Shown: positions 3,338 to 12,755, counted from the stretch's first letter. The stretch is DNA of 64,000 bases from Azospirillum brasilense (GCA_003241645.1 QFOX01000009.1:2534-66533), one strand, 5' to 3'. A program made the numbers and translations. The notes: generated from the letters alone by a model not told the origin.

Positions 3338-4717
3338 GTGAGCATGGAATTGCCCACACAGCCCGTGCGCGACGATCAAACCGCGCCCAGCACGCCTGCC
3401 ATGCCGCCGCATGCGCAGCCCATGGGCGCGCCCAGCGCCGCGGGCCCGTTCGAGCAGTCGGTGGGGCGCGCACTGAGCGCATCCGCCCCGCCCATCGTGC
3501 CGCACACGCAGACCGAATCCACACTGGCCCCCACGGCGGAATTCACCCGCATCTTCCTGCTGGCATGGATCATTCGCTACATCTTCCGCGGCGGTGCCGG
3601 TGCTACGTTCGAGAAAACGCTGGAGCAAGGCGGCGTGCGCGCCAAGATCCTCAACGCGCTCAGCGTGCCGGGTCGCGCCATCGAAAAATGGATCGGCGGC
3701 GGCACCCCGAAAGTGGGCTGGCAGCTGCCCGAGCTTGAGGCCGCGGCCTACAGCACGGCGATCGGCGTCGGCTCCGGCGCGCTCAGCTGGCAATATAGCC
3801 GCATGGTAAAACGCGACATCCAGAACCTGTTCAGCGAAAGCGTGGCCGAAGAAAAAGGCATTCCGCAGGCGCAAGTCACGTTCGATGATATCAGCACCAG
3901 CGATAACAAGATCATCCAGCGCACGGTCGAGAATTACAGCAAAAAGAAATGGAGTCGCCTTGGCTCCGATGCGCTTTTCCTTGTGGCGGCCCCGCTGCGC
4001 TCCGGCCACGTCACCGACCTACTGCTGGGCGTCAAAGGCATCGAGATCTTCGCCGATACATGGAAACGTAAGACCACCATGTTCGAAGATTTGGTGACCT
4101 TCGTGAACAACAAGATCAACCCGCGCAACGGGCTTGGCCAGCCGGTCAGCCAGGGCGAGATCTTCGACCTGTACCAGCATTATGCGGAAGCGTTCGCGCC
4201 GCAGAAAATGTTTAACAACGTGCTGAGCAAGAACGCCAGCGGGCGGTGGGCGCAGAGCCAGCCCATCTTCCAGCGCATCACCGACCTGATGAACGAAACC
4301 TATGCGTACAAGCACACCACCCCGGCCGATTACAACGCCGCAAAACGCAGCGGCTCAGATTTCCCACTGCCGAAGCTGATCTACATGCTCGGCCACGACA
4401 TGATCGATGCCGACCGCCCCGAGCGCACGCTAGCGCTGGTCGAGATCATGAATGCCAAGGGCGGTGCTGCCGTGCGGCAGGCATTGGCACAGCTCGACGC
4501 GGGCGCCGACCCCAAAACCGTGCTCAACGACTATGGGCTAAGCCTGCAGGCGCCGAAGCAACCCGAAAAACTCGATAATCCGAACGGGGTGCTGCCCAAA
4601 GGCTCGACCATGCAGCTGGAGCGCACCGAAGCGGCCCTTCCCAGCACGCAGGTGGATGCGTCCAGCATTTCACAAGCGCAGGCGCTCACCGGCCGCCACC
4701 AGCAGGCGCTGGTCTAG
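3338..4717 (+). CDS. Hypothetical protein (459 aa), with a Pro/Ala-rich N-terminus and no recognisable domain
   Basis: Long ORF with coding-like composition. It is convergent with the Tad-like cassette (stops 3 nt apart). I recognise no family motif. Confidence 0.6.
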   Translation: MSMELPTQPVRDDQTAPSTPAMPPHAQPMGAPSAAGPFEQSVGRALSASAPPIVPHTQTESTLAPTAEFTRIFLLAWIIRYIFRGGAGATFEKTLEQGGVRAKILNALSVPGRAIEKWIGGGTPKVGWQLPELEAAAYSTAIGVGSGALSWQYSRMVKRDIQNLFSESVAEEKGIPQAQVTFDDISTSDNKIIQRTVENYSKKKWSRLGSDALFLVAAPLRSGHVTDLLLGVKGIEIFADTWKRKTTMFEDLVTFVNNKINPRNGLGQPVSQGEIFDLYQHYAEAFAPQKMFNNVLSKNASGRWAQSQPIFQRITDLMNETYAYKHTTPADYNAAKRSGSDFPLPKLIYMLGHDMIDADRPERTLALVEIMNAKGGAAVRQALAQLDAGADPKTVLNDYGLSLQAPKQPEKLDNPNGVLPKGSTMQLERTEAALPSTQVDASSISQAQALTGRHQQALV

Positions 4718-4720
4718 CCG

Positions 4721-5770
4721 CTACTCGGCGATACGCACTTTCTTGATGCCCGCCACGATGGTCTGGAACACGTGCTGCAAATCATCTTCGGTGTAGGCAC
4801 GGAAGAAGTATTTTCCCTCGTTGGTCTTGGCATCACCGCTGGCACAGCCTTGCAACAGGGCGGCGGCCTTCTTGTCCTTGTTCACGTCATTGCCAAGCGC
4901 AATGGTGAACACCATGTAGACGGGCGATTGTTCTTTGAAGAACTTACAATCCGCCAGCGTCGCTTCATCGGCCTTCGCGCGGGTCGATGGCGCGGCCGGG
5001 TTGTTCGAGCCATCGGTCAGCAGCACGATCGCACGCACCGAATCGGTGCGGAATTGCGGCATCATCAGCCGCGCACGTTCGGTGCCTTTCGAGCTGTCCG
5101 TACCGCCCACGGCCTTCAGTCCGTTGATGAAGGTGGTGACGGTGGGTTTATTGTTCGTCAGGTTCTGCACGCCGATCACCTTCGTGTCCCATTTCACCAG
5201 GCCGATCTTGTTCTGCGCAGCGCCCTTACCATCCAGCAAGGCATTGTTGAAAATGGTCGCCGCACTTTTCATGGCATCCAGCCGGGTCATGCCACCGCCT
5301 GCATCGGCCACGCTCATGGAGCCGGAATTATCGAACAGCAGCAATACGTCGTTTTTGATCTCGGTCACCTGCGCGATCACACTGACCACCGACGCGCCCT
5401 CGGCATCCAGCTGGTCCACGCCAATGTTGCTCACGAAATACGACGGCACGGATGCCGTGGCCGACACGCTGATGGTCGCGCCCACTTTGATCACCGGGGT
5501 CGGGCGGGCAATGCCCAGATAGCCGTCGGGATAGTTCAGGTTGAAGTAGCGTTGCGCCGCCGCGCTGCGCTGGCTGCTGGTGGTGCCGGTGGGCAACGAG
5601 GCCGCGGCGAGTGCCGCCGCGTCGGATGCCTGCTGCACTTTGGCGCGCACCAGTTGCTGGCGCCCGAAATCCACCGCCGAGCCACCGGCCGCGAACAGCA
5701 CCAGGATACTCAGGCCGGTCATGATGAGAACGTTACCGCCCTCGTTCTTCCGGAATGTGCGCAGGAACAT
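4721..5770 (-). CDS. TadG-like pseudopilin with von Willebrand factor A domain (cassette 2)
   Basis: The N-terminus RKNEGGNVLIMTGLSILVLFAAGGSAVDFGRQQLVRAKVQQASDAAALAAA matches the TadG/TadE-like N-terminal helix. MIDAS-type DNSGS lies in LLLFDNSGSM. It is a paralog of 7210..8424. Confidence 0.8.
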   Translation of the reverse strand: MFLRTFRKNEGGNVLIMTGLSILVLFAAGGSAVDFGRQQLVRAKVQQASDAAALAAASLPTGTTSSQRSAAAQRYFNLNYPDGYLGIARPTPVIKVGATISVSATASVPSYFVSNIGVDQLDAEGASVVSVIAQVTEIKNDVLLLFDNSGSMSVADAGGGMTRLDAMKSAATIFNNALLDGKGAAQNKIGLVKWDTKVIGVQNLTNNKPTVTTFINGLKAVGGTDSSKGTERARLMMPQFRTDSVRAIVLLTDGSNNPAAPSTRAKADEATLADCKFFKEQSPVYMVFTIALGNDVNKDKKAAALLQGCASGDAKTNEGKYFFRAYTEDDLQHVFQTIVAGIKKVRIAE

Positions 5771-5782
5771 GGTCGTTCTCCG

Positions 5783-6460
5783 TTAACAGCTGGCGTCGGT
5801 GAAATTATCGGGCAGGCAGGTAAGGCTTTCGTAGCGCGGCACGAAATACATGCGGCGCGCAAGGGTGACCGGCGGAATGCTAAGCCCCTGCGGCAGGTTC
5901 GAGAGAATATCCTGCAGGAACGGCTCGTAATGGTAGAACATCTCCCCCACCACGATGTTCTCGCCCTCCATCATGCCGGCAATATCGCCCGCCACGGGGG
6001 TAAAGGTCGCGGTGGTGTTGATGACGGTCGGGTTCACCTGCGCGGGCGTGCGCCCGTTCACCACGCTGCGGCTATCACCATCGTTCAGGCTACCGCCTCC
6101 GGCGATCTGCCATTTCACGCGGTTGATACCGGATTCGCGGCGCACGGAGCTGAGAATGATCGCCTGCCGGGTTTCATCGGAATAGACGCCCATAATGCGC
6201 GAGAACTGCGGCAGCACCGCCGTGCGCAGCACCGTTTCGCTGATCTCTGCGGATTCGCGCTTCGGCGTGGCGGGCATGAACTGCGCGGTCACGTCGGTGA
6301 TGGCATAGGCCGCGCGGTCAAGCCGTTGGGCAATGAGGATGAAGCGCGTCAGCTCGGCCCCGCCGAGGAAAATGAGCAGCAGGAACGGCATCACCAACGC
6401 GAATTCCAGCAAGGCCAAACCCTGCTGGTCGCGCATGAACTGCCGGGGCATAAGCCGCAT
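5783..6460 (-). CDS. TadE/TadF-like pseudopilin (cassette 2, second gene)
   Basis: MRDQQGLALLEFALVMPFLLLIFLGGAELTRF is a TadE-like N-terminal motif. The start ATG at 6460 overlaps the upstream stop by 1 nt (TGATG). It is a paralog of 8424..9110. Confidence 0.75.
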   Translation of the reverse strand: MRLMPRQFMRDQQGLALLEFALVMPFLLLIFLGGAELTRFILIAQRLDRAAYAITDVTAQFMPATPKRESAEISETVLRTAVLPQFSRIMGVYSDETRQAIILSSVRRESGINRVKWQIAGGGSLNDGDSRSVVNGRTPAQVNPTVINTTATFTPVAGDIAGMMEGENIVVGEMFYHYEPFLQDILSNLPQGLSIPPVTLARRMYFVPRYESLTCLPDNFTDASC

Positions 6461-7065
6461 CAGAAGGGCTCGTTTCGAATGATGGTCGAAGCGGTGATCA
6501 TCGCCACGCCCGTGGTGCCACCTTTTTTGTCGTCGCTGCCAAAGAACTGGCCAATATAGGGCGTCACCAGCGCCTTCCACGGGTAGACCACGCGCACTTC
6601 CACCAGCGTGCTGGCATCGCCAAGGTCATCGGCCGCGGCCAGCCCCTCATAGGTCCCGTTGCCGTTCACATCCTCATACGAGGTGCAGGTGATGGGCTTG
6701 CTCGTATATTTGCCGCCGTCCATGCAAATGTCCGGCTCGATCGTGCCGCCCTTGGCCAGCGTGTTGATCTCGACTTCCGTGCCGCCGCCGCGCACCAGCG
6801 ATTTCGATTTATCCTTCACGTAGCATTCCATGTATTCGACGCGGGTTTTGGTGCTGGCGCAGTTGCCGCCCATGGTCTTGCCGAGGCTGGATTCGCGCGC
6901 CGCCTGCAAGGTGATGGCCTCGACCGCGATCTTGTGGAACATGAACAGGCCGAATTCCATGATGCCAAGGAAAAGCATGAAGAAAATGGGCGCAACGATG
7001 GCGAATTCGACGATGCTGGCACCGCCTTCGTCATGCAGAAATCGCTGTAGGAATGCCCGGCTCAT
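6460..7065 (-). CDS. TadE-like pseudopilin (cassette 2, first gene)
   Basis: FLHDEGGASIVEFAIVAPIFFMLFLGIMEFGLFMFHKIAVEAITLQAARESSLG. It is a paralog of 9110..9733. SD caggag lies upstream of the ATG. Confidence 0.78.
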   Translation of the reverse strand: MSRAFLQRFLHDEGGASIVEFAIVAPIFFMLFLGIMEFGLFMFHKIAVEAITLQAARESSLGKTMGGNCASTKTRVEYMECYVKDKSKSLVRGGGTEVEINTLAKGGTIEPDICMDGGKYTSKPITCTSYEDVNGNGTYEGLAAADDLGDASTLVEVRVVYPWKALVTPYIGQFFGSDDKKGGTTGVAMITASTIIRNEPF

Positions 7066-7083
7066 TCGTTCTCCTGAGCTTCC

Positions 7084-7092
7084 AGCATAGCA
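7084..7092 (-). promoter_or_regulatory. Possible extended -10 element (TGcTATGCT) upstream of cassette 2
   Basis: Minus-strand reading gaaaaagttaacacttcgctgcTATGCTgg aligns with the equivalent region upstream of cassette 1 (gaaaaagttaaaattttggTATAATgc). There is no experimental support. Confidence 0.3.
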
Positions 7093-7149
7093 GCGAAGTG
7101 TTAACTTTTTCTAAAATGCGGCGGATTCTTTTGAACGGCGCAGGGCCCT

Positions 7150-7186
7150 AAAACAAAGCGGGCCGGGCGTTTTCAGCGCCCAGCCC
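7150..7186 (-). terminator. Rho-independent terminator after the TadG-like gene of cassette 1
   Basis: Minus-strand gggctgggcg-ctgaaaa-cgcccggccc followed by gctttgtttt, about 25 nt after the stop at 7210. Confidence 0.6.
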
Positions 7187-7209
7187 GTAATGGTCACGAA
7201 AGCATCTGC

Positions 7210-8424
7210 TTATTCAGCGATGCGCACTTTGCGAATGGTCTCCGCGAACGCGGTGAGGATCTTTTTCAGCTCCGTCGCGTTGGGGGCATAGAAGTAGCGG
7301 GCGTTGCCCTTCTCATCCACCGAGGCGCATTGGCGCAGGGCAGCTTCATCCGACGGGCTGGTGGAAACGAAGTTCACGACATATAGCGTTACGCCAGCAT
7401 TTTTGATCTTGGTGCATTCCGCGTTGAAGACGGCTGCGTTGCCTGAGGATACATCGGTATACGAAGGCGAGGGATCCGGTTCACGCATGATCTGCCCATC
7501 ACCCAGCAGGATCATGTTTTTCACCGTGCTGTAGGTTCTGCCATCCGAACGTGAAGTAGCTGGTGTGCCCACGGCGTCGTTCTGTTGCGCAGCATAGTAA
7601 TTGATCTGGCGGGCCGTTTTGCTTGGGCGGCTGTAGATATAGTTGGCCCAGTTAGTCTGGTTACAGACGATTGCCGGACCGACATAGCCCGTGGTTTTCG
7701 TTCCCGTGATCATATTATAGCCTGCGGTAAGGCCCCAATGGTCGAAGTTCTGGCAACGGCCCTGCAACGCGCTCACATACCCTTTGGCGTTTGCTTTGTT
7801 GGAAGTCAGCGGGCCATGGGTGGTAATGCTGCCAGTATAGCCGATCACGCCCACACGCACATCCGCATTTGCATTAGCGGGATAGATACTCTCAAGCATC
7901 AGGTCGAGGGCTTCTTTCTCGCAGTCCATGCGCGTTCTGCCGCGCCCACAGCCACCGTCGGTCGCCAGTGTCGAGCCCGATTCATCCACCACCACAACCA
8001 CGTCATAGTCCGTTTTGGCACCGGCTTGCGTGGATACGCGCGTCCGCCCACCCGCTTCCAGTGAGGCCACGCCCACGTTGGAAATGAAGTTCGCGCCCAC
8101 ATTGCTGTTGGCCGACACCGTCACATCCGCACCGATATTGATGCTGGGCGTGGGGCGGGCAACACCAAGGTAATCCGACGGGTAATTCAGTTCGTAATAG
8201 CGGTTTGCCACCGCCGTGCGTTCGGCCACGGTTGCGCCAGCCGGCAACGATGCCGCCGCGATGGCCGCCGCATCGGTCGCCTGTTGCAGTTTCGAGCGCA
8301 CCAGTTGCTGGCGCCCGAAATCCACCGCGGCACCACCCGCCGCAAACAGGATGATGATGCCAAGGCCGGTCAGCATCAGCACGTTACCACGTTCATTCCG
8401 GAAGAAGCGATGAAGCATATGCAT
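7210..8424 (-). CDS. TadG-like pseudopilin with von Willebrand factor A domain (cassette 1)
   Basis: FFRNERGNVLMLTGLGIIILFAAGGAAVDFGRQQLVRSKLQQATDAAAIAAA. MIDAS DESGS lies in VVVVVDESGST. The C-terminus ...KILTAFAETIRKVRIAE parallels ...TIVAGIKKVRIAE of cassette 2. I chose the ATG at 8424, which overlaps the upstream stop (TAATG). A GTG at 8433 is an alternative start. Confidence 0.8.
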   Translation of the reverse strand: MHMLHRFFRNERGNVLMLTGLGIIILFAAGGAAVDFGRQQLVRSKLQQATDAAAIAAASLPAGATVAERTAVANRYYELNYPSDYLGVARPTPSINIGADVTVSANSNVGANFISNVGVASLEAGGRTRVSTQAGAKTDYDVVVVVDESGSTLATDGGCGRGRTRMDCEKEALDLMLESIYPANANADVRVGVIGYTGSITTHGPLTSNKANAKGYVSALQGRCQNFDHWGLTAGYNMITGTKTTGYVGPAIVCNQTNWANYIYSRPSKTARQINYYAAQQNDAVGTPATSRSDGRTYSTVKNMILLGDGQIMREPDPSPSYTDVSSGNAAVFNAECTKIKNAGVTLYVVNFVSTSPSDEAALRQCASVDEKGNARYFYAPNATELKKILTAFAETIRKVRIAE

Positions 8425-9110
8425 TACGGACACTCACTGTAGGTGAAAGCAGGGGGCAGGCAGATGAGCGGCTCGCCGCGGGGGCTGACGAACACGCTAC
8501 GGTAAAGCTGGGCGGCCGGAATGTTCAGGCCGAGCCCGGTCAGCACGCCCGCAAGGAACGGCTGGTAGTTGTAGAAAATTTCGCCGATGATGATGTTCTC
8601 GCCATCATACATGCCCGCGATGAGCCCGGCTTTTTCACCGCCGAACGTCACGGGGCTATTCTTCGCGGCGGGATTCGGCGGCCGGAACGGGCCGAAGCCG
8701 TTCACTTCACTGAGCACGCCGCCCAGCGACCCACCACCGCCCAGCTGCCATTTCACGCGCGTCTGCGCGCCTTCACGGCGGATGGAGGTGAGAATGCCCA
8801 CCACGCGTGGGTTCGCGGCACCACCCGTGTAGGGATCGATGATGCGCGGCACATTGGAGAAGACGTTATCGGTAAGTTCATATTCATGCAGCTCGCCCGC
8901 TTTCGGCGCAGACGTCGTCGCGCGCGGGTATTGCGCGGTCATGTTGGTGATGACGTAGGCGGCCTGCTCCAGCTTCTGGCTGATGACGATGTAACGCGCC
9001 AGTTCCGCCCCGCCGAGGAAGATCACCAGCAGGAATGGCAGCACGAAGGCGAACTCCAGCAGCGCGACGCCGCGGGTATTTCGAACGAACTGTGTAAAGA
9101 ATACGGTCAT
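8424..9110 (-). CDS. TadE/TadF-like pseudopilin (cassette 1, second gene)
   Basis: RNTRGVALLEFAFVLPFLLVIFLGGAELARYIV. The C-terminal half aligns with 5783..6460 (GENI[IV][IV]GE[IM]FY[NH]YQPFL ... ICLP). Confidence 0.75.
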   Translation of the reverse strand: MTVFFTQFVRNTRGVALLEFAFVLPFLLVIFLGGAELARYIVISQKLEQAAYVITNMTAQYPRATTSAPKAGELHEYELTDNVFSNVPRIIDPYTGGAANPRVVGILTSIRREGAQTRVKWQLGGGGSLGGVLSEVNGFGPFRPPNPAAKNSPVTFGGEKAGLIAGMYDGENIIIGEIFYNYQPFLAGVLTGLGLNIPAAQLYRSVFVSPRGEPLICLPPAFTYSECP

Positions 9111-9733
9111 TAGAAGGGCTCGTTCTTGAAGACGGTGCGGGCACTGATCATCACCACCCCGGTAGTGCCACCCTTACCGTCGGCACTCCCGAAATATTGG
9201 GCGAGGTAGGGAATCAGAACTTTCCATGGGTAGATCACGCGCACTTCCACCACGTCACCCGCGTTACCCACGGCTGCGGCGGCCGATGCGCCCTGATAGC
9301 CGGTGGCGCCATTGACTTCCTCGAACGGGCCCACATTGCCGGGGCCGCACACGGCCGGAGCAGAGCTAGGCTTTTGCGGATCGAACAAGCAAATATCCGG
9401 CAGGAAGGTGCCGCCATTGGCCAGCGTGTTGATCTGCACGATCGTATCGTCGCCACGAATGAGCGATTTGGATTTCTGCTGCACCACGCAGCGCATGTAG
9501 GACGCGCGGTCGGCCGTGCCGGCGCACGGGCCCGCGCTGTTGGACTTGCCAAGGCTGGATTCGCGCGCCGCCTGCATGGTGATCGCCTCCACCGCAATGC
9601 GGTGGAACATGTACAGCCCGAATTCAAGAATACCGAGGAACAGCAGGAAGAACACAGGGGCAACGAACGCGAACTCAATAATGTTCGCGCCGCGCTCATC
9701 GTTCAGAAAGCGTTGGAAGAATTGCTTGCTCAC
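9110..9733 (-). CDS. TadE-like pseudopilin (cassette 1, first gene)
   Basis: FFQRFLNDERGANIIEFAFVAPVFFLLFLGILEFGLYMFHRIAVEAITMQAARESSLG. I chose the GTG start at 9733, which is preceded by the SD aagaggaa. The longer ORF to 9868 would overlap rodA. Confidence 0.75.
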   Translation of the reverse strand: MSKQFFQRFLNDERGANIIEFAFVAPVFFLLFLGILEFGLYMFHRIAVEAITMQAARESSLGKSNSAGPCAGTADRASYMRCVVQQKSKSLIRGDDTIVQINTLANGGTFLPDICLFDPQKPSSAPAVCGPGNVGPFEEVNGATGYQGASAAAAVGNAGDVVEVRVIYPWKVLIPYLAQYFGSADGKGGTTGVVMISARTVFKNEPF

Positions 9734-9751
9734 CGGTTCCTCTTTCGTAGC

Positions 9752-9760
9752 ATTATACCA
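9752..9760 (-). promoter_or_regulatory. Possible extended -10 promoter element (TGgTATAAT) in the rodA-tadE spacer
   Basis: Minus-strand ...aaattttggTATAATgctacgaaagaggaaccGTG. A perfect TATAAT with an upstream TG lies ~20 nt before the GTG start. Confidence 0.4.
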
Positions 9761-9801
9761 AAATTTTAACTTTTTCCCACCTGTTTTTGCCCTTTTTTCG
9801 G

Positions 9802-10932
9802 CTAGATGCCGAATCGGCGGGGCATCACCAGTTCGCGGTTGATATACACATGCATCAATAGCCCGCACGCCATCAGCGTGGCCAGCATGAACGAGCCGCC
9901 GTAGGACAGGAACGGCAGCGGCACGCCCACCACCGGGATCATGCCCATGACCATGGCCATGTTAATGAAAATATGGACAAAAAGCATGGCGGCCACGCCC
10001 GCGGCAATGAGCCGGCCGAACTGGTGGCGGCAGCGCACCGCCAGCATCAGCGCGAACATCAGCAGCGCGCCATACAGGGTCAGCAGCACCGCCGAGCCGA
10101 GGAACCCAAGTTCCTCCGCCAGCATGGTAAAAATGAAATCCGTCTGTTTTTCCGGCAGAAAATCCAGCTGGCCCTGGCTGCCCTGCAGCAGGCCTTTGCC
10201 CGTGAGCCCGCCCGAGCCAATGGCGATCTTGGATTGAATGATGTTGTAGCCCGCACCCAGCGGGTCCGAATCGGGGTCGAGGAAGGTGCGCACCCGGCGT
10301 TTCTGGTAATCATGCAGGAAATGGTAGGCCACCGGCACCGCCGCCGCCACCCCGCCGATCGCCACCGCGAAATACTGCCAGCGAATGCCCGCCATGAAGC
10401 ACAGCGAAAACGCGATGAAGCTGACAATGGTGGCCGTGCCGAGGTTCGGCTGTTTCAGGATGAGCCCCACCGGCAACAGCGTCAGCATCAGCGGCACCAG
10501 CAGCAGGATGTAATGGCGCGTGCTGTCCATCGGTGCGCTGTGGAAGTAGCGCGCCAGTGCGAGGATGATGCCGAGCTTCATGAGCTCCGAGGGCTGGATG
10601 TTGAACGCCCCCACCCCGATCCAGCGTTGCGCGCCCATGCCGATGATGCCCATCACCTCCACGATCACCAGCATCACCACGCAGGCGGCGTAGAAGAAAT
10701 AGGCGCTGCGCATCAATAGTGGCGTGGGCGTAACGGCGATCACCAACATCATCGCCAGCCCCAGCACCATGCTCACCGATTGCTTCAGGGCGAACACGCG
10801 GAACTCACCGCCCGCGGCGGAATATTGCATGGCCAGCCCCAGCAGGCACAGCAGCATGATGACCAGCAGCATGCCGCCATGCATGGATTGTGCGCGGCCC
10901 TTCCAGCGTTTGATGTGCGTGCGGCTGATCAT
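9802..10932 (-). CDS. rodA: Rod shape-determining protein RodA (SEDS family peptidoglycan glycosyltransferase)
   Basis: Polytopic membrane protein with a FtsW/RodA-like C-terminus (...GVPLPFLSYGGSFMLATLMACGLLMHV). The start at 10932 forms an ATGA overlap with the mrdA stop. The N-terminal extension in the ORF track is not coding-like. Confidence 0.9.
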   Translation of the reverse strand: MISRTHIKRWKGRAQSMHGGMLLVIMLLCLLGLAMQYSAAGGEFRVFALKQSVSMVLGLAMMLVIAVTPTPLLMRSAYFFYAACVVMLVIVEVMGIIGMGAQRWIGVGAFNIQPSELMKLGIILALARYFHSAPMDSTRHYILLLVPLMLTLLPVGLILKQPNLGTATIVSFIAFSLCFMAGIRWQYFAVAIGGVAAAVPVAYHFLHDYQKRRVRTFLDPDSDPLGAGYNIIQSKIAIGSGGLTGKGLLQGSQGQLDFLPEKQTDFIFTMLAEELGFLGSAVLLTLYGALLMFALMLAVRCRHQFGRLIAAGVAAMLFVHIFINMAMVMGMIPVVGVPLPFLSYGGSFMLATLMACGLLMHVYINRELVMPRRFGI

Positions 10933-12755
10933 GCGTCGTCCTTCACCGGTAGCAGCGGCCGGGGCGCTGCACCCTGCAGCAATTCCTGCAATTTCTGCAT
11001 CACGTCGCGCGCCACGGGCGCAGCCGCTGAAGCACCGCCGCCGCCATGCTCGATCAGCACCGAGCAGCAATATTCGGGTTTTTCCGCCGGGGCGAAGCCA
11101 ACGAACAGGCCATGGTGGCGGAACTTCCACGGAATGCTGTTCTGGTCCTGCCCGCGCACGGTGATGCGGCGCACCTGCGCCGTGCCGGTCTTACCGCCGA
11201 AGCTCATGCCCTCGGCCTTGATGGTGCTGCCATAAGCCGTGCCACGCGGCGAGTTGGTCACCATGTTCATGCCCTCGAGCGCCACCTGCAGATGCTTCGC
11301 GTCGATGTCGATGAAGCCATCGTCGCGGCTTTCCTCATCCAGCAGCAGGCGCGGGTAGATCTTCTTGCCACCGTTCACCATGCGCGCCGTCATGATCGCC
11401 AGCTGCACCGGCGTGGTCAGCACGTCGCCCTGCCCGATGGCCGTATTGATGGTTTCGCCGGGGTTCCATGGCAGGCCGCGCGCCTGCTTTTTCCAGTCCG
11501 GCGAAGGCACAATGCCTGCGCGCTCACCGCGCAGCCCAAGGCCCGAGGGCGCACCCAGCCCGAATTCTTTGGCCATCTCGGCCACCGCGTCGATGCCCGC
11601 TTCACGGCCCACCGTGTAGAAATATGTATCGCACGACACCGCAAGCGCTTCGGCAAAATTCACCGCGCCGTGGCCTTCGGGCTTCCAGCAGTTCCAGCGG
11701 TTGCTGCCAAGGTAGAAATGGCCCGGGCAATAGACCTTGCGCTCCGGGCTGACCTTGCCGGATTTCAGCGCCGCAAGGCCGGTGACCATTTTGAACGTCG
11801 ATCCCGGCGGGTATTGCCCGGCGATGGCCTTGTTCAGCAACGGCACTTTCTCGTTCGCGTTGAGTGCATTCCAATAGCCCTGTTTGATGCCCTTGCTGAA
11901 TTCGTTGGGGTCGTACGACGGCACCGAGGCCAGCGCCAGCACCTCGCCGGTGTGCACATGCATCACCACCACCGCGCCGGACTGGTCAGCAAGCCGCTCG
12001 ACCACGTATTCCTGCAGGCGCGTATCGATGGTCAGGTTCAGGGTGGGGCCGGCCTTGGCTTCCTTCTTGGCCAGTTCGCGCACCGGCGAGCCCACCACGT
12101 TCACCTCGAGCTGGCGGGTGCCGGGAATGCCCCGCAGTTTCGCTTCGTACAGCGCCTCGATACCATTTTTGCCAATGCGCATGTCCGGCTGCTTCAACAG
12201 CGGATCGTCCTCTTTCACCTCGTTGGGCGCGACCTTACCGACATAACCGATCAGGTGGCTCGCATGGTCCGAGAACGGGTAATGCCGCCACTGCCCTTCT
12301 TCGATGAAGGCGGTCGGCAGGTTCGGCAGGTGGAATTCCACGCGTGCCATTTCCTCCCAGCTCAAATGCTCGCGCACCAGCACGGGGAATCCGCGCTTGG
12401 CGCGCTTGATATCCACGCGGCGCTCCTCCAGCTCCGCCGGGCGCAACTGCAGCAGGCTGCCGAGCTGCTCGAGCGTTTCCGCCGCAATATCCTTGCGTTC
12501 GGATTCCAGCATCAGCCGGTAATTCACGTGGTTCATGGCCATGGCCACGCCATAGCGATCGGCGATGACGCCGCGCGGCGGCACCAGCATCTGCACCTTG
12601 ATGCGGTTGCCTTCTGCCTCGGTCACGTATTCTTCGCCGCGCACGAATTGCAGGTAATAGAGCCGCGTCAGCAACGAGGTGCAGGCGAACGCCTGCAGCC
12701 CACCAAAAACAAAGGCGCGGCGCTGGATCATTCGTTGCAGGTCGATGGGACGCAT
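10929..12755 (-). CDS. mrdA: Penicillin-binding protein 2 (elongasome transpeptidase)
   Basis: PBP dimerisation plus transpeptidase domains (STFK in PPGSTFKMVTGLAAL, SCDTYFY, KTGTAQ). It lies between mreD and rodA. Confidence 0.93.
   Translation of the reverse strand: MRPIDLQRMIQRRAFVFGGLQAFACTSLLTRLYYLQFVRGEEYVTEAEGNRIKVQMLVPPRGVIADRYGVAMAMNHVNYRLMLESERKDIAAETLEQLGSLLQLRPAELEERRVDIKRAKRGFPVLVREHLSWEEMARVEFHLPNLPTAFIEEGQWRHYPFSDHASHLIGYVGKVAPNEVKEDDPLLKQPDMRIGKNGIEALYEAKLRGIPGTRQLEVNVVGSPVRELAKKEAKAGPTLNLTIDTRLQEYVVERLADQSGAVVVMHVHTGEVLALASVPSYDPNEFSKGIKQGYWNALNANEKVPLLNKAIAGQYPPGSTFKMVTGLAALKSGKVSPERKVYCPGHFYLGSNRWNCWKPEGHGAVNFAEALAVSCDTYFYTVGREAGIDAVAEMAKEFGLGAPSGLGLRGERAGIVPSPDWKKQARGLPWNPGETINTAIGQGDVLTTPVQLAIMTARMVNGGKKIYPRLLLDEESRDDGFIDIDAKHLQVALEGMNMVTNSPRGTAYGSTIKAEGMSFGGKTGTAQVRRITVRGQDQNSIPWKFRHHGLFVGFAPAEKPEYCCSVLIEHGGGGASAAAPVARDVMQKLQELLQGAAPRPLLPVKDDA

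Follow-up and report, generated by a model that had tools for sequence, protein, structure and literature searches.

Two tandem TadE-TadE-TadG triads next to rodA: probable alternative minor-pilin and tip-adhesin operons of a family-wide Tad pilus

Introduction

In the alphaproteobacterial Tad pilus of Caulobacter crescentus, two small minor pilins, CpaJ and CpaK, are accompanied by CpaL, a protein that joins a pilin module to a VWA domain with a MIDAS, an adhesion site that depends on a metal ion (PMC12607857, PMC12637624). Deletion mutants of cpaJ or cpaK have no pili (PMC12607857), and cpaL lies away from the cpa operon (PMC12637624). We have analyzed a similar gene set in a 64,000-nucleotide stretch of the assembly GCA_003241645.1 (C3:2534-66533 in our contig numbering; hereafter the window, from whose first nucleotide positions are counted unless a contig is given). 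Here, two consecutive triads on the minus strand, T1 (9733-7210) and T2 (7065-4721), each encode a TadE-like protein (A), a second TadE/TadF-like protein (B) and a TadG-like protein with a VWA domain (C), in this order. As with cpaL, these minor-pilin genes lie apart from the pilus machine. In Caulobacter, however, cpaJ and cpaK are found inside the main operon and cpaL alone is distal, whereas in our window the whole triad is detached and occurs in two tandem copies. The VWA domain of CpaL in addition contains two inserted β-rich domains, whereas T2C has no such insertion and T1C a short one of low model confidence. The pilus of Caulobacter is controlled by the cell cycle; boxes for the regulator CtrA are frequent ahead of the triads in the family studied here.

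Several paralogous three-gene clusters of the TadE/TadF/TadG type, most of them unlinked to a machine, are also known from Myxococcus xanthus, where they encode the Kil tips Tip1-4 (KilL/KilM/KilN) (PMC12075869). These tips were proposed, and have been genetically shown, to be interchangeable and to prime pilus assembly, and removal of all four tip clusters abolishes the pilus (PMC12075869). As in the Kil system, at least two paralogous clusters are present in the genome studied here (T1, T2 and a third triad, T3), a likeness at the level of the genes. Kil is, however, a predation pilus, and the variable domain of KilN is not a VWA domain, whereas the triads described here carry one. Some of the Kil tip clusters also include an Flp-type adapter pilin; there is none beside our triads.

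A stand-alone minor-pilin cluster has likewise been described in Bradyrhizobium diazoefficiens, an alphaproteobacterium with two full Tad machines. This cluster 4 (tadGEF) has the gene order G-E-F, is present in a single copy and is not located by rodA, whereas the order in our window is E-E/F-G, in two copies, by rodA. Cluster 4 is involved in adhesion, and partial clusters occur elsewhere in the same genome (Mongiardini 2016, as cited in PMC12918737). The tadE-tadF-tadG genes of Aggregatibacter actinomycetemcomitans (Tomich et al. 2006, as cited in PMC12637624) resemble our triads in the TadE N-terminal domain, in the TadV-type cleavage site G↓xxxxEF (the arrow marks the cut) and in the order E-F-G. 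In this canonical arrangement, tadEFG follow tadZABCD in one operon; in the genome studied here only T3, on contig C60, is so arranged. TadEFG tip clusters that stand alone or occur several times in a genome have been described before (PMC12918737, PMC12075869). What is particular here is that a whole triad lies apart from a minimal machine that is universal in the family, that its place after rodA is fixed in four genera and that it has been duplicated repeatedly. A preliminary description of the window had regarded two stand-alone modules of this kind next to the elongasome operon as an unfamiliar arrangement. Stand-alone clusters are published; only the position after rodA, which stems from one insertion within this family, is special.

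Results

We assigned the six triad genes, all on the minus strand, using Pfam. T1A (207 amino acids; 9110..9733, with a GTG start at 9733), T1B (228 amino acids; 8424..9110), T2A (201 amino acids; 6460..7065) and T2B (225 amino acids; 5783..6460) match TadE (PF07811) with 46.1, 35.2, 48.5 and 32.7 bits, respectively, and thus pass the curated cut-off of 22.9 bits; T1B and T2B show an additional, weak match to TadF. The translations of all four proteins contain a prepilin-peptidase site G↓xxxxEF together with a hydrophobic helix (ERG↓ANIIEF in T1A, TRG↓VALLEF in T1B, EGG↓ASIVEF in T2A and QQG↓LALLEF in T2B). This site resembles that of the Flp pilins encoded in the same genome (G↓ATAIEY). T1C (404 amino acids; 7210..8424) and T2C (349 amino acids; 4721..5770) are TadG/CpaL-like modular minor pilins, in which PF13400 (Tad; 39.1 and 37.1 bits) is combined with a VWA or VWA_2 match above cut-off (VWA_2 with 52.7 bits in T2C, whose VWA domain is compact). 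The MIDAS motif reads DESGS in T1C and DNSGS in T2C, and both proteins share the C-terminal sequence KVRIAE. None of the six proteins matched a specific family in NCBIfam.

The positions and common order of the triads, the assignment of their members to TadE, TadE/TadF and TadG(VWA), the MIDAS motifs and the shared C termini all agree with what the preliminary description had read from the DNA. It had also quoted a 44-residue string as common to the two first genes, which is exact for T2A but differs at several positions in T1A. Likewise, the 1-nucleotide overlaps that it reported for the internal junctions are found at three of the four (TAATG at both ends of T1B, TGATG between T2A and T2B), whereas T2B and T2C are separated by 12 nucleotides, with a GGAG ahead of the ATG.

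AlphaFold2 models of T1C and T2C (mean predicted local distance difference test scores of 81.1 and 84.5, respectively) consist of a 48-residue N-terminal helix (residues 10-57), a small β module with strands at residues 93-130 and a classical VWA fold; an insertion in the VWA domain of T1C (residues 241-300) is modelled with low confidence. In a Foldseek search with T2C, the top match was PilB (7b7p), a minor pilin of Streptococcus sanguinis that carries a VWA domain. Next came SpaC and Mfa5, both adhesins of pilus tips, and then integrin I domains, with BatB also among the matches. The same fold neighbours in the PDB (PilB 7b7p, SpaC and Mfa5) have been reported for Caulobacter CpaL (PMC12607857). 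The earlier reading of the triads as modules of the TadE/TadF/TadG type, with one adhesin-like VWA protein each, holds. In an alignment of 28 homologues, the MIDAS residues Asp-147, Ser-149, Ser-151 and Asp-253 and the VWA cysteines Cys-275 and Cys-309 (T2C numbering) are invariant or nearly so. Cys-275 and Cys-309 may form a disulfide of the type found in PilY1, where it has been linked to force sensing (discussed in PMC12607857).

We located the remaining pilus genes in the assembly (2.16 Mb in 121 contigs, ∼96% complete, 61% G+C). The preliminary description had presented the triads as being without Flp pilin or Tad machinery. This is correct for the 64-kb window, which contains no flp, tadV or Tad machine gene, but it does not apply to the genome, in which the parts of a Tad (type IVc) pilus are all encoded: CpaF/TadA ATPase, TadB/C platform, CpaC secretin, CpaB, CpaE, Flp and prepilin peptidase. 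There are two machines, both on C60. Machine 1 (C60:91-102 kb) has the order cpaB-cpaC-cpaD-cpaE-cpaF-tadB-tadC-tadD (TPR)-tadE-tadE-tadG, the last three genes representing T3, which brings the genome to three triads and six TadE domains, four of them in the window and one pair on C60. T3 is only ∼28-30% identical to T1 and T2. The preliminary description had held that a complete tad locus elsewhere with tadEFG genes of its own would, if the copies in the window were untranscribed, count against its interpretation, and machine 1 with T3 is such a locus. Machine 2 (C60:55.2-62.9 kb) comprises only cpaB-C-D-E-F-tadB-C, flanked by guaA and uvrB, and we found no pilin, peptidase, tadD or tadEFG gene at this locus. 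Contig C94 has three flp genes at its end, whose products read G↓ATAIEY, and two A24 prepilin peptidase genes are located at C114:5196-5780 and C9:11235-12107. The canonical linkage of minor pilins to a machine is seen for T3 only; T1 and T2 reside on a different contig, C3.

We next compared the distribution of machines and triads among relatives, using 40 genomes from 13 genera of the GTDB family, each 1.4-2.7 Mb in size; two relatives identified by their public names are metagenome-assembled genomes (MAGs), and in NCBI, family members were met under the labels 'Azospirillum sp.', 'Alphaproteobacteria bacterium' and 'Rickettsiales bacterium'. A machine-2-type secretin is encoded in all 40 genomes, with 55-77% identity to the copy of the window genome, and a machine-1-type secretin in 20 of them, with ∼40% identity. 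The layout in which cpaBCDEF-tadBC lie between guaA and uvrB without tadEFG recurs in genomes G005, G023 and G033. [quoted passage not shown] T3-type triads form their own clade in the tree and lie at most ∼8 kb from the machine-1 secretin wherever both share a contig. Because machine 2 has no tadEFG genes and minor pilins are required for piliation in Caulobacter and Myxococcus, the stand-alone triad would represent the only minor-pilin set available to the universal machine. It is thus most likely, judging by co-occurrence, that the rodA-proximal triads supply the minor pilins and the VWA tip of machine 2.

One locus in our sample joins genes of both machines: in G028 (C55:4000-23900), the tadC of machine 2 is directly followed by a machine-1 tadC, tadD and a T3-type triad. 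We set this junction aside as a possible assembly chimera in a MAG; otherwise, the locus would be a recombinant one.

The two triads of the window are related by duplication. Their proteins are 61% (T1A/T2A), 48% (T1B/T2B) and 34% (T1C/T2C) identical, and in the C proteins the first ∼135 residues, comprising the helix and the pilin module, are far closer than the VWA domain, where T1C has an insertion of ∼60 residues that is absent from T2C. Their DNA aligns in register at an offset of ∼2650 nucleotides with 71-76% identity, and the repeat takes in a 28-nucleotide piece of the leader (7084-7111 versus 9749-9776, 75% identical). The duplication is old and not a chance match. We considered recent gene conversion between the triads and dropped it, as it is unlikely given the absence of near-identical tracts: no DNA tract exceeds ∼76% identity.

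Maximum-likelihood trees group the rodA-proximal A proteins in a single clade (support 100/98), in which T1A is sister to T2A (99/94); T1B and T2B likewise pair with each other (82/92). In G033 the tandem pairs, and in G017 the extra copies, also group most closely with one another in these trees. Because the copies pair together within T1/T2, within G033 and within G017, the trees indicate that at least three lineages underwent tandem duplication independently of each other, or else that the copies evolve in concert. Most relatives have a single triad. In G025, four TadG-like genes follow rodA in tandem; after rodA in G017 the A genes are doubled, the B genes tripled and the C genes doubled; G020 has an inverted T3-like pair and several C genes at this position, and G016 is also expanded. 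These comparisons identify the rodA-proximal locus as a site of recurrent copy-number change, with most of the divergence falling in the VWA domain, where the MIDAS residues and the cysteine pair are nevertheless kept.

We then analyzed the genomic position of the triads. The gene preceding T1, rodA (9802..10935, minus strand; PF01098 FTSW_RODA_SPOVE, E = 1.9e-103), lies outside the pilus module and is the last gene of mreB-mreC-mreD-mrdA-rodA, all identified by Pfam on the same strand; the operon and the start of T1 68 nucleotides after rodA had both been described correctly. On the other side, T2 is followed by a convergent open reading frame (ORF) of 459 codons (3338..4717, plus strand) with no Pfam or NCBIfam match. 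Coordinates of T1A-like genes were compared with those of rodA, and 20 loci were mapped. Nearly all genomes of the window's genus show the order rodA, A, B, C and convergent 459-aa ORF, and the same order is found in three further genera (G005-G007, G009 and G012). Overall, no fewer than 24 genomes from four genera have rodA and the triad side by side, despite TadE divergence to 34-54% identity. Independent gene calls in public assemblies list MreC, MreD, PBP2, RodA, TadE, TadE, Tad/VWA, a convergent 449-aa ORF and CobD. The rodA-proximal arrangement, unfamiliar to the preliminary description, is therefore common among close relatives, although public records name the triad genes only generically ('VWA domain-containing protein', 'TadG-related'). 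A search of public contig records with the exact T2C sequence gave no match.

In G002, G014 and G004, rodA is directly convergent with the 459-aa ORF, with no triad in between, and in the more distant genera of the family the stand-alone triad is located elsewhere, near neither rodA nor a machine. Since rodA faces the 459-aa ORF directly at these triad-free sites, the comparison argues for a single insertion: the triad entered the gap between rodA and the 459-aa ORF once and then stayed. We had considered the 459-aa ORF as a partner of the triad and rejected this, since it faces rodA where no triad intervenes. It is the older neighbour of rodA, with 45-76% identity kept in the genus and no known domain. 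Across the order, no more than 20 of the 71 genomes sampled have TadE genes. Of the 17 such genomes that belong to other families, 15 gave a rodA match, and adjacency was seen in one, G090, where a machine-1-type tad locus (C3:564000-580000), complete and including a T3-like triad, is divergent from a rodA that has no upstream mrdA. An order-wide linkage of rodA and tadE was consequently dropped, with 14 of 15 other-family genomes showing no adjacency and G090 having a divergent orientation and a complete tad locus. In G013, the triad is convergent on rodA.

The regions preceding the two triads were inspected for signals. The 68-nucleotide rodA-T1A spacer (9734..9801, minus strand) is A-rich and contains the extended -10-like element TGGTATAAT (9760-9752), the leader piece GAAAAAGTTAA and the ribosome-binding site AGAGGAA before the GTG at 9733. 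Neither a hairpin nor a terminator was found in this spacer (fold z-score +0.43). Because no terminator separates rodA from T1A, read-through from rodA into T1 may occur. The triads themselves are separated by an intrinsic terminator (7149..7187, minus strand), in which an 11-bp stem with 10 G-C pairs is followed by the T run CTTTGTTTT (folding energy -36.3 kcal/mol, z-score -2.8), in agreement with the preliminary description. The T2 leader (7066..7148, minus strand) contains TTTAGAAAAAGTTAAC, the hexamer TATGCT 11 nucleotides downstream and then a GGAG ribosome-binding site. A duplicated leader had been proposed, and the 28-nucleotide repeat supports this, but the spacing is unequal: the distance from the shared piece GAAAAAGTTAA to the -10-like hexamer is 8 nucleotides in T1 versus 11 in T2.

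TTTAGAAAAAGTTAAC differs by one mismatch from the CtrA box TTAA-N7-TTAAC, and the T1 leader contains only a CtrA half-site, beside TGGTATAAT; a full box was sought ahead of the two triads of the window and not found. The rodA-A spacers of relatives have a conserved -10-like hexamer (TATAAT/TATAGT), and in many of them a CtrA box sits beside this promoter-like element. A full TTAA-N7-TTAA box is present at most 260 nucleotides upstream of 12 of the 39 TadE-A genes of the family, compared with 0.24 expected from mononucleotide shuffles, a count that is inflated by the kinship of the genomes, yet the boxes vary in sequence and occur across several genera. CtrA itself is encoded in the window genome (C14:7246-7986; NF045991, 412 bits versus a cut-off of 350). 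Together, these elements suggest that each triad has its own promoter, probably linked to the cell cycle.

Additional genes with similarity to pilus components were noted in the genome. Two CpaF-like ATPase genes (410 and 422 amino acids) lie in tandem by rpoN (C12:13998-16529); their products are 55-62% identical to the CpaF of machine 1 over the ATPase core, and there is no other pilus gene near them. Just past uvrB, and so next to machine 2, two adjoining ORFs of 265 and 285 codons (C60:51324-53034) have N-methylation motifs in the style of type IVa pili and type II secretion systems (GFSLVELSIV). Contig C9 encodes a PilD-like peptidase and a 646-aa secretin-like protein.

Discussion

We consider it probable that the two triads are alternative minor-pilin and tip-adhesin operons for the housekeeping Tad pilus of the family. 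By analogy with the described systems, the two small proteins of a triad would be cut at G↓xxxxEF by a CpaA/TadV-type peptidase encoded elsewhere and would join the pilin module of the TadG-like protein in the inner membrane. The resulting A/B/C complex would prime polymerization of the Flp pilins, encoded by the three genes on C94, and would end up at the tip of the fibre, displaying the VWA domain for metal-dependent adhesion. The partner machine would be the one encoded between guaA and uvrB, with the accessory machine 1 using its own triad T3. Because T1 and T2 differ mainly in their VWA domains, they most likely provide two alternative tips for one pilus. The position after rodA is a historical insertion site, with each triad carrying its own promoter-like leader. 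Machine pairing, tip location, alternative use of the triads and promoter activity are all features that we infer from the comparisons above.

Several observations weigh against this assignment. The TadG-like proteins have neither glutamate nor phenylalanine at position +5 (G↓NVLML and G↓NVLIM), which makes the processing of T1C and T2C uncertain. The CtrA box ahead of the window's triads is degenerate. No Flp-type adapter pilin is found beside the triads, unlike in some Myxococcus tip clusters. Finally, the pairing with machine 2 is drawn from co-occurrence, and with both triad and machine 2 being near-universal, the family offers little contrast.

The rodA-proximal triads could instead be extra tips for machine 1, or be used by both machines without preference. 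The window genome holds both machines, several unlinked tip clusters serve one pilus in Myxococcus (PMC12075869), and the A/B proteins of T1 and T2 share their TadE N-terminal segment with T3. Yet machine 1 always comes with its own T3-type triad, to which T1 and T2 are only about 28-30% identical, and the stand-alone triad persists in 19 of 20 family genomes that have no machine 1 to serve. We therefore regard this alternative as rather unlikely. A tie to the elongasome would be a different explanation for the neighbourhood of rodA: were the triads co-transcribed with mreBCD-mrdA-rodA, the timing and placement of the tip, or an envelope function of the VWA protein, would follow lateral wall growth. 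Such a tie would fit the same-strand gap of 68 nucleotides with no terminator after rodA, the adjacency shared by 24 or more genomes in four genera even with TadE at 34-54% identity, and the two further rodA-triad adjacencies in other orientations (G013, and G090 of another family). It is, however, at odds with the single insertion indicated by distant genera, which have the triad elsewhere and rodA facing the 459-aa ORF, with the -10-like element of the spacer itself and the CtrA box that many relatives have there, and with the strong terminator that insulates T2; moreover, when TadE-bearing genomes of other families are considered, rodA and TadE genes lie apart in 14 of the 15 that gave a rodA match. 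An elongasome function for the triads thus appears highly improbable.

It is at least as improbable that one of the triads is a redundant copy heading for loss, or that the triads form a pilus-independent, membrane-anchored VWA complex. One triad suffices in most relatives, the TadG-like proteins do not have the canonical +5 residue, and VWA proteins with an N-terminal membrane helix do exist outside pili, for example BatB, which is among our fold matches. The top fold match is nevertheless a pilin-VWA fusion and not a Bat protein. All six ORFs have remained intact at 34-61% identity, with processing motifs, MIDAS and translational coupling kept, and duplicates have been maintained in three independent lineages, which argues against decay. 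Our preferred interpretation thus remains that T1 and T2 equip the family-wide machine 2 with alternative tips.

If this pairing is correct, the triads after rodA resolve an apparent orphan, as they would account for the minor pilins that are missing from the family-wide minimal Tad locus. They add a non-predatory, alphaproteobacterial case to the idea that Tad pili are customized by exchangeable TadEFG tips, and they indicate that a single chromosomal site can see repeated expansion of a tip locus. In annotation, the names Tad minor pilin and tip adhesin should replace the generic 'VWA domain-containing protein', and adjacency to the elongasome genes should not be taken as an operon fusion on the basis of sequence alone. 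A more far-reaching and at present speculative scenario is that the tip genes of the housekeeping Tad pilus have passed to a separate locus of variable copy number that duplicates repeatedly, its copies diverging fastest in the VWA domain and yielding interchangeable, surface-specific tips. Their synthesis would be timed to the cell cycle by a CtrA-type promoter situated directly behind the elongasome genes. If true, a non-predatory bacterium from a family of uncultured alphaproteobacteria with small genomes would possess an exchangeable, surface-specific set of pilus tips.

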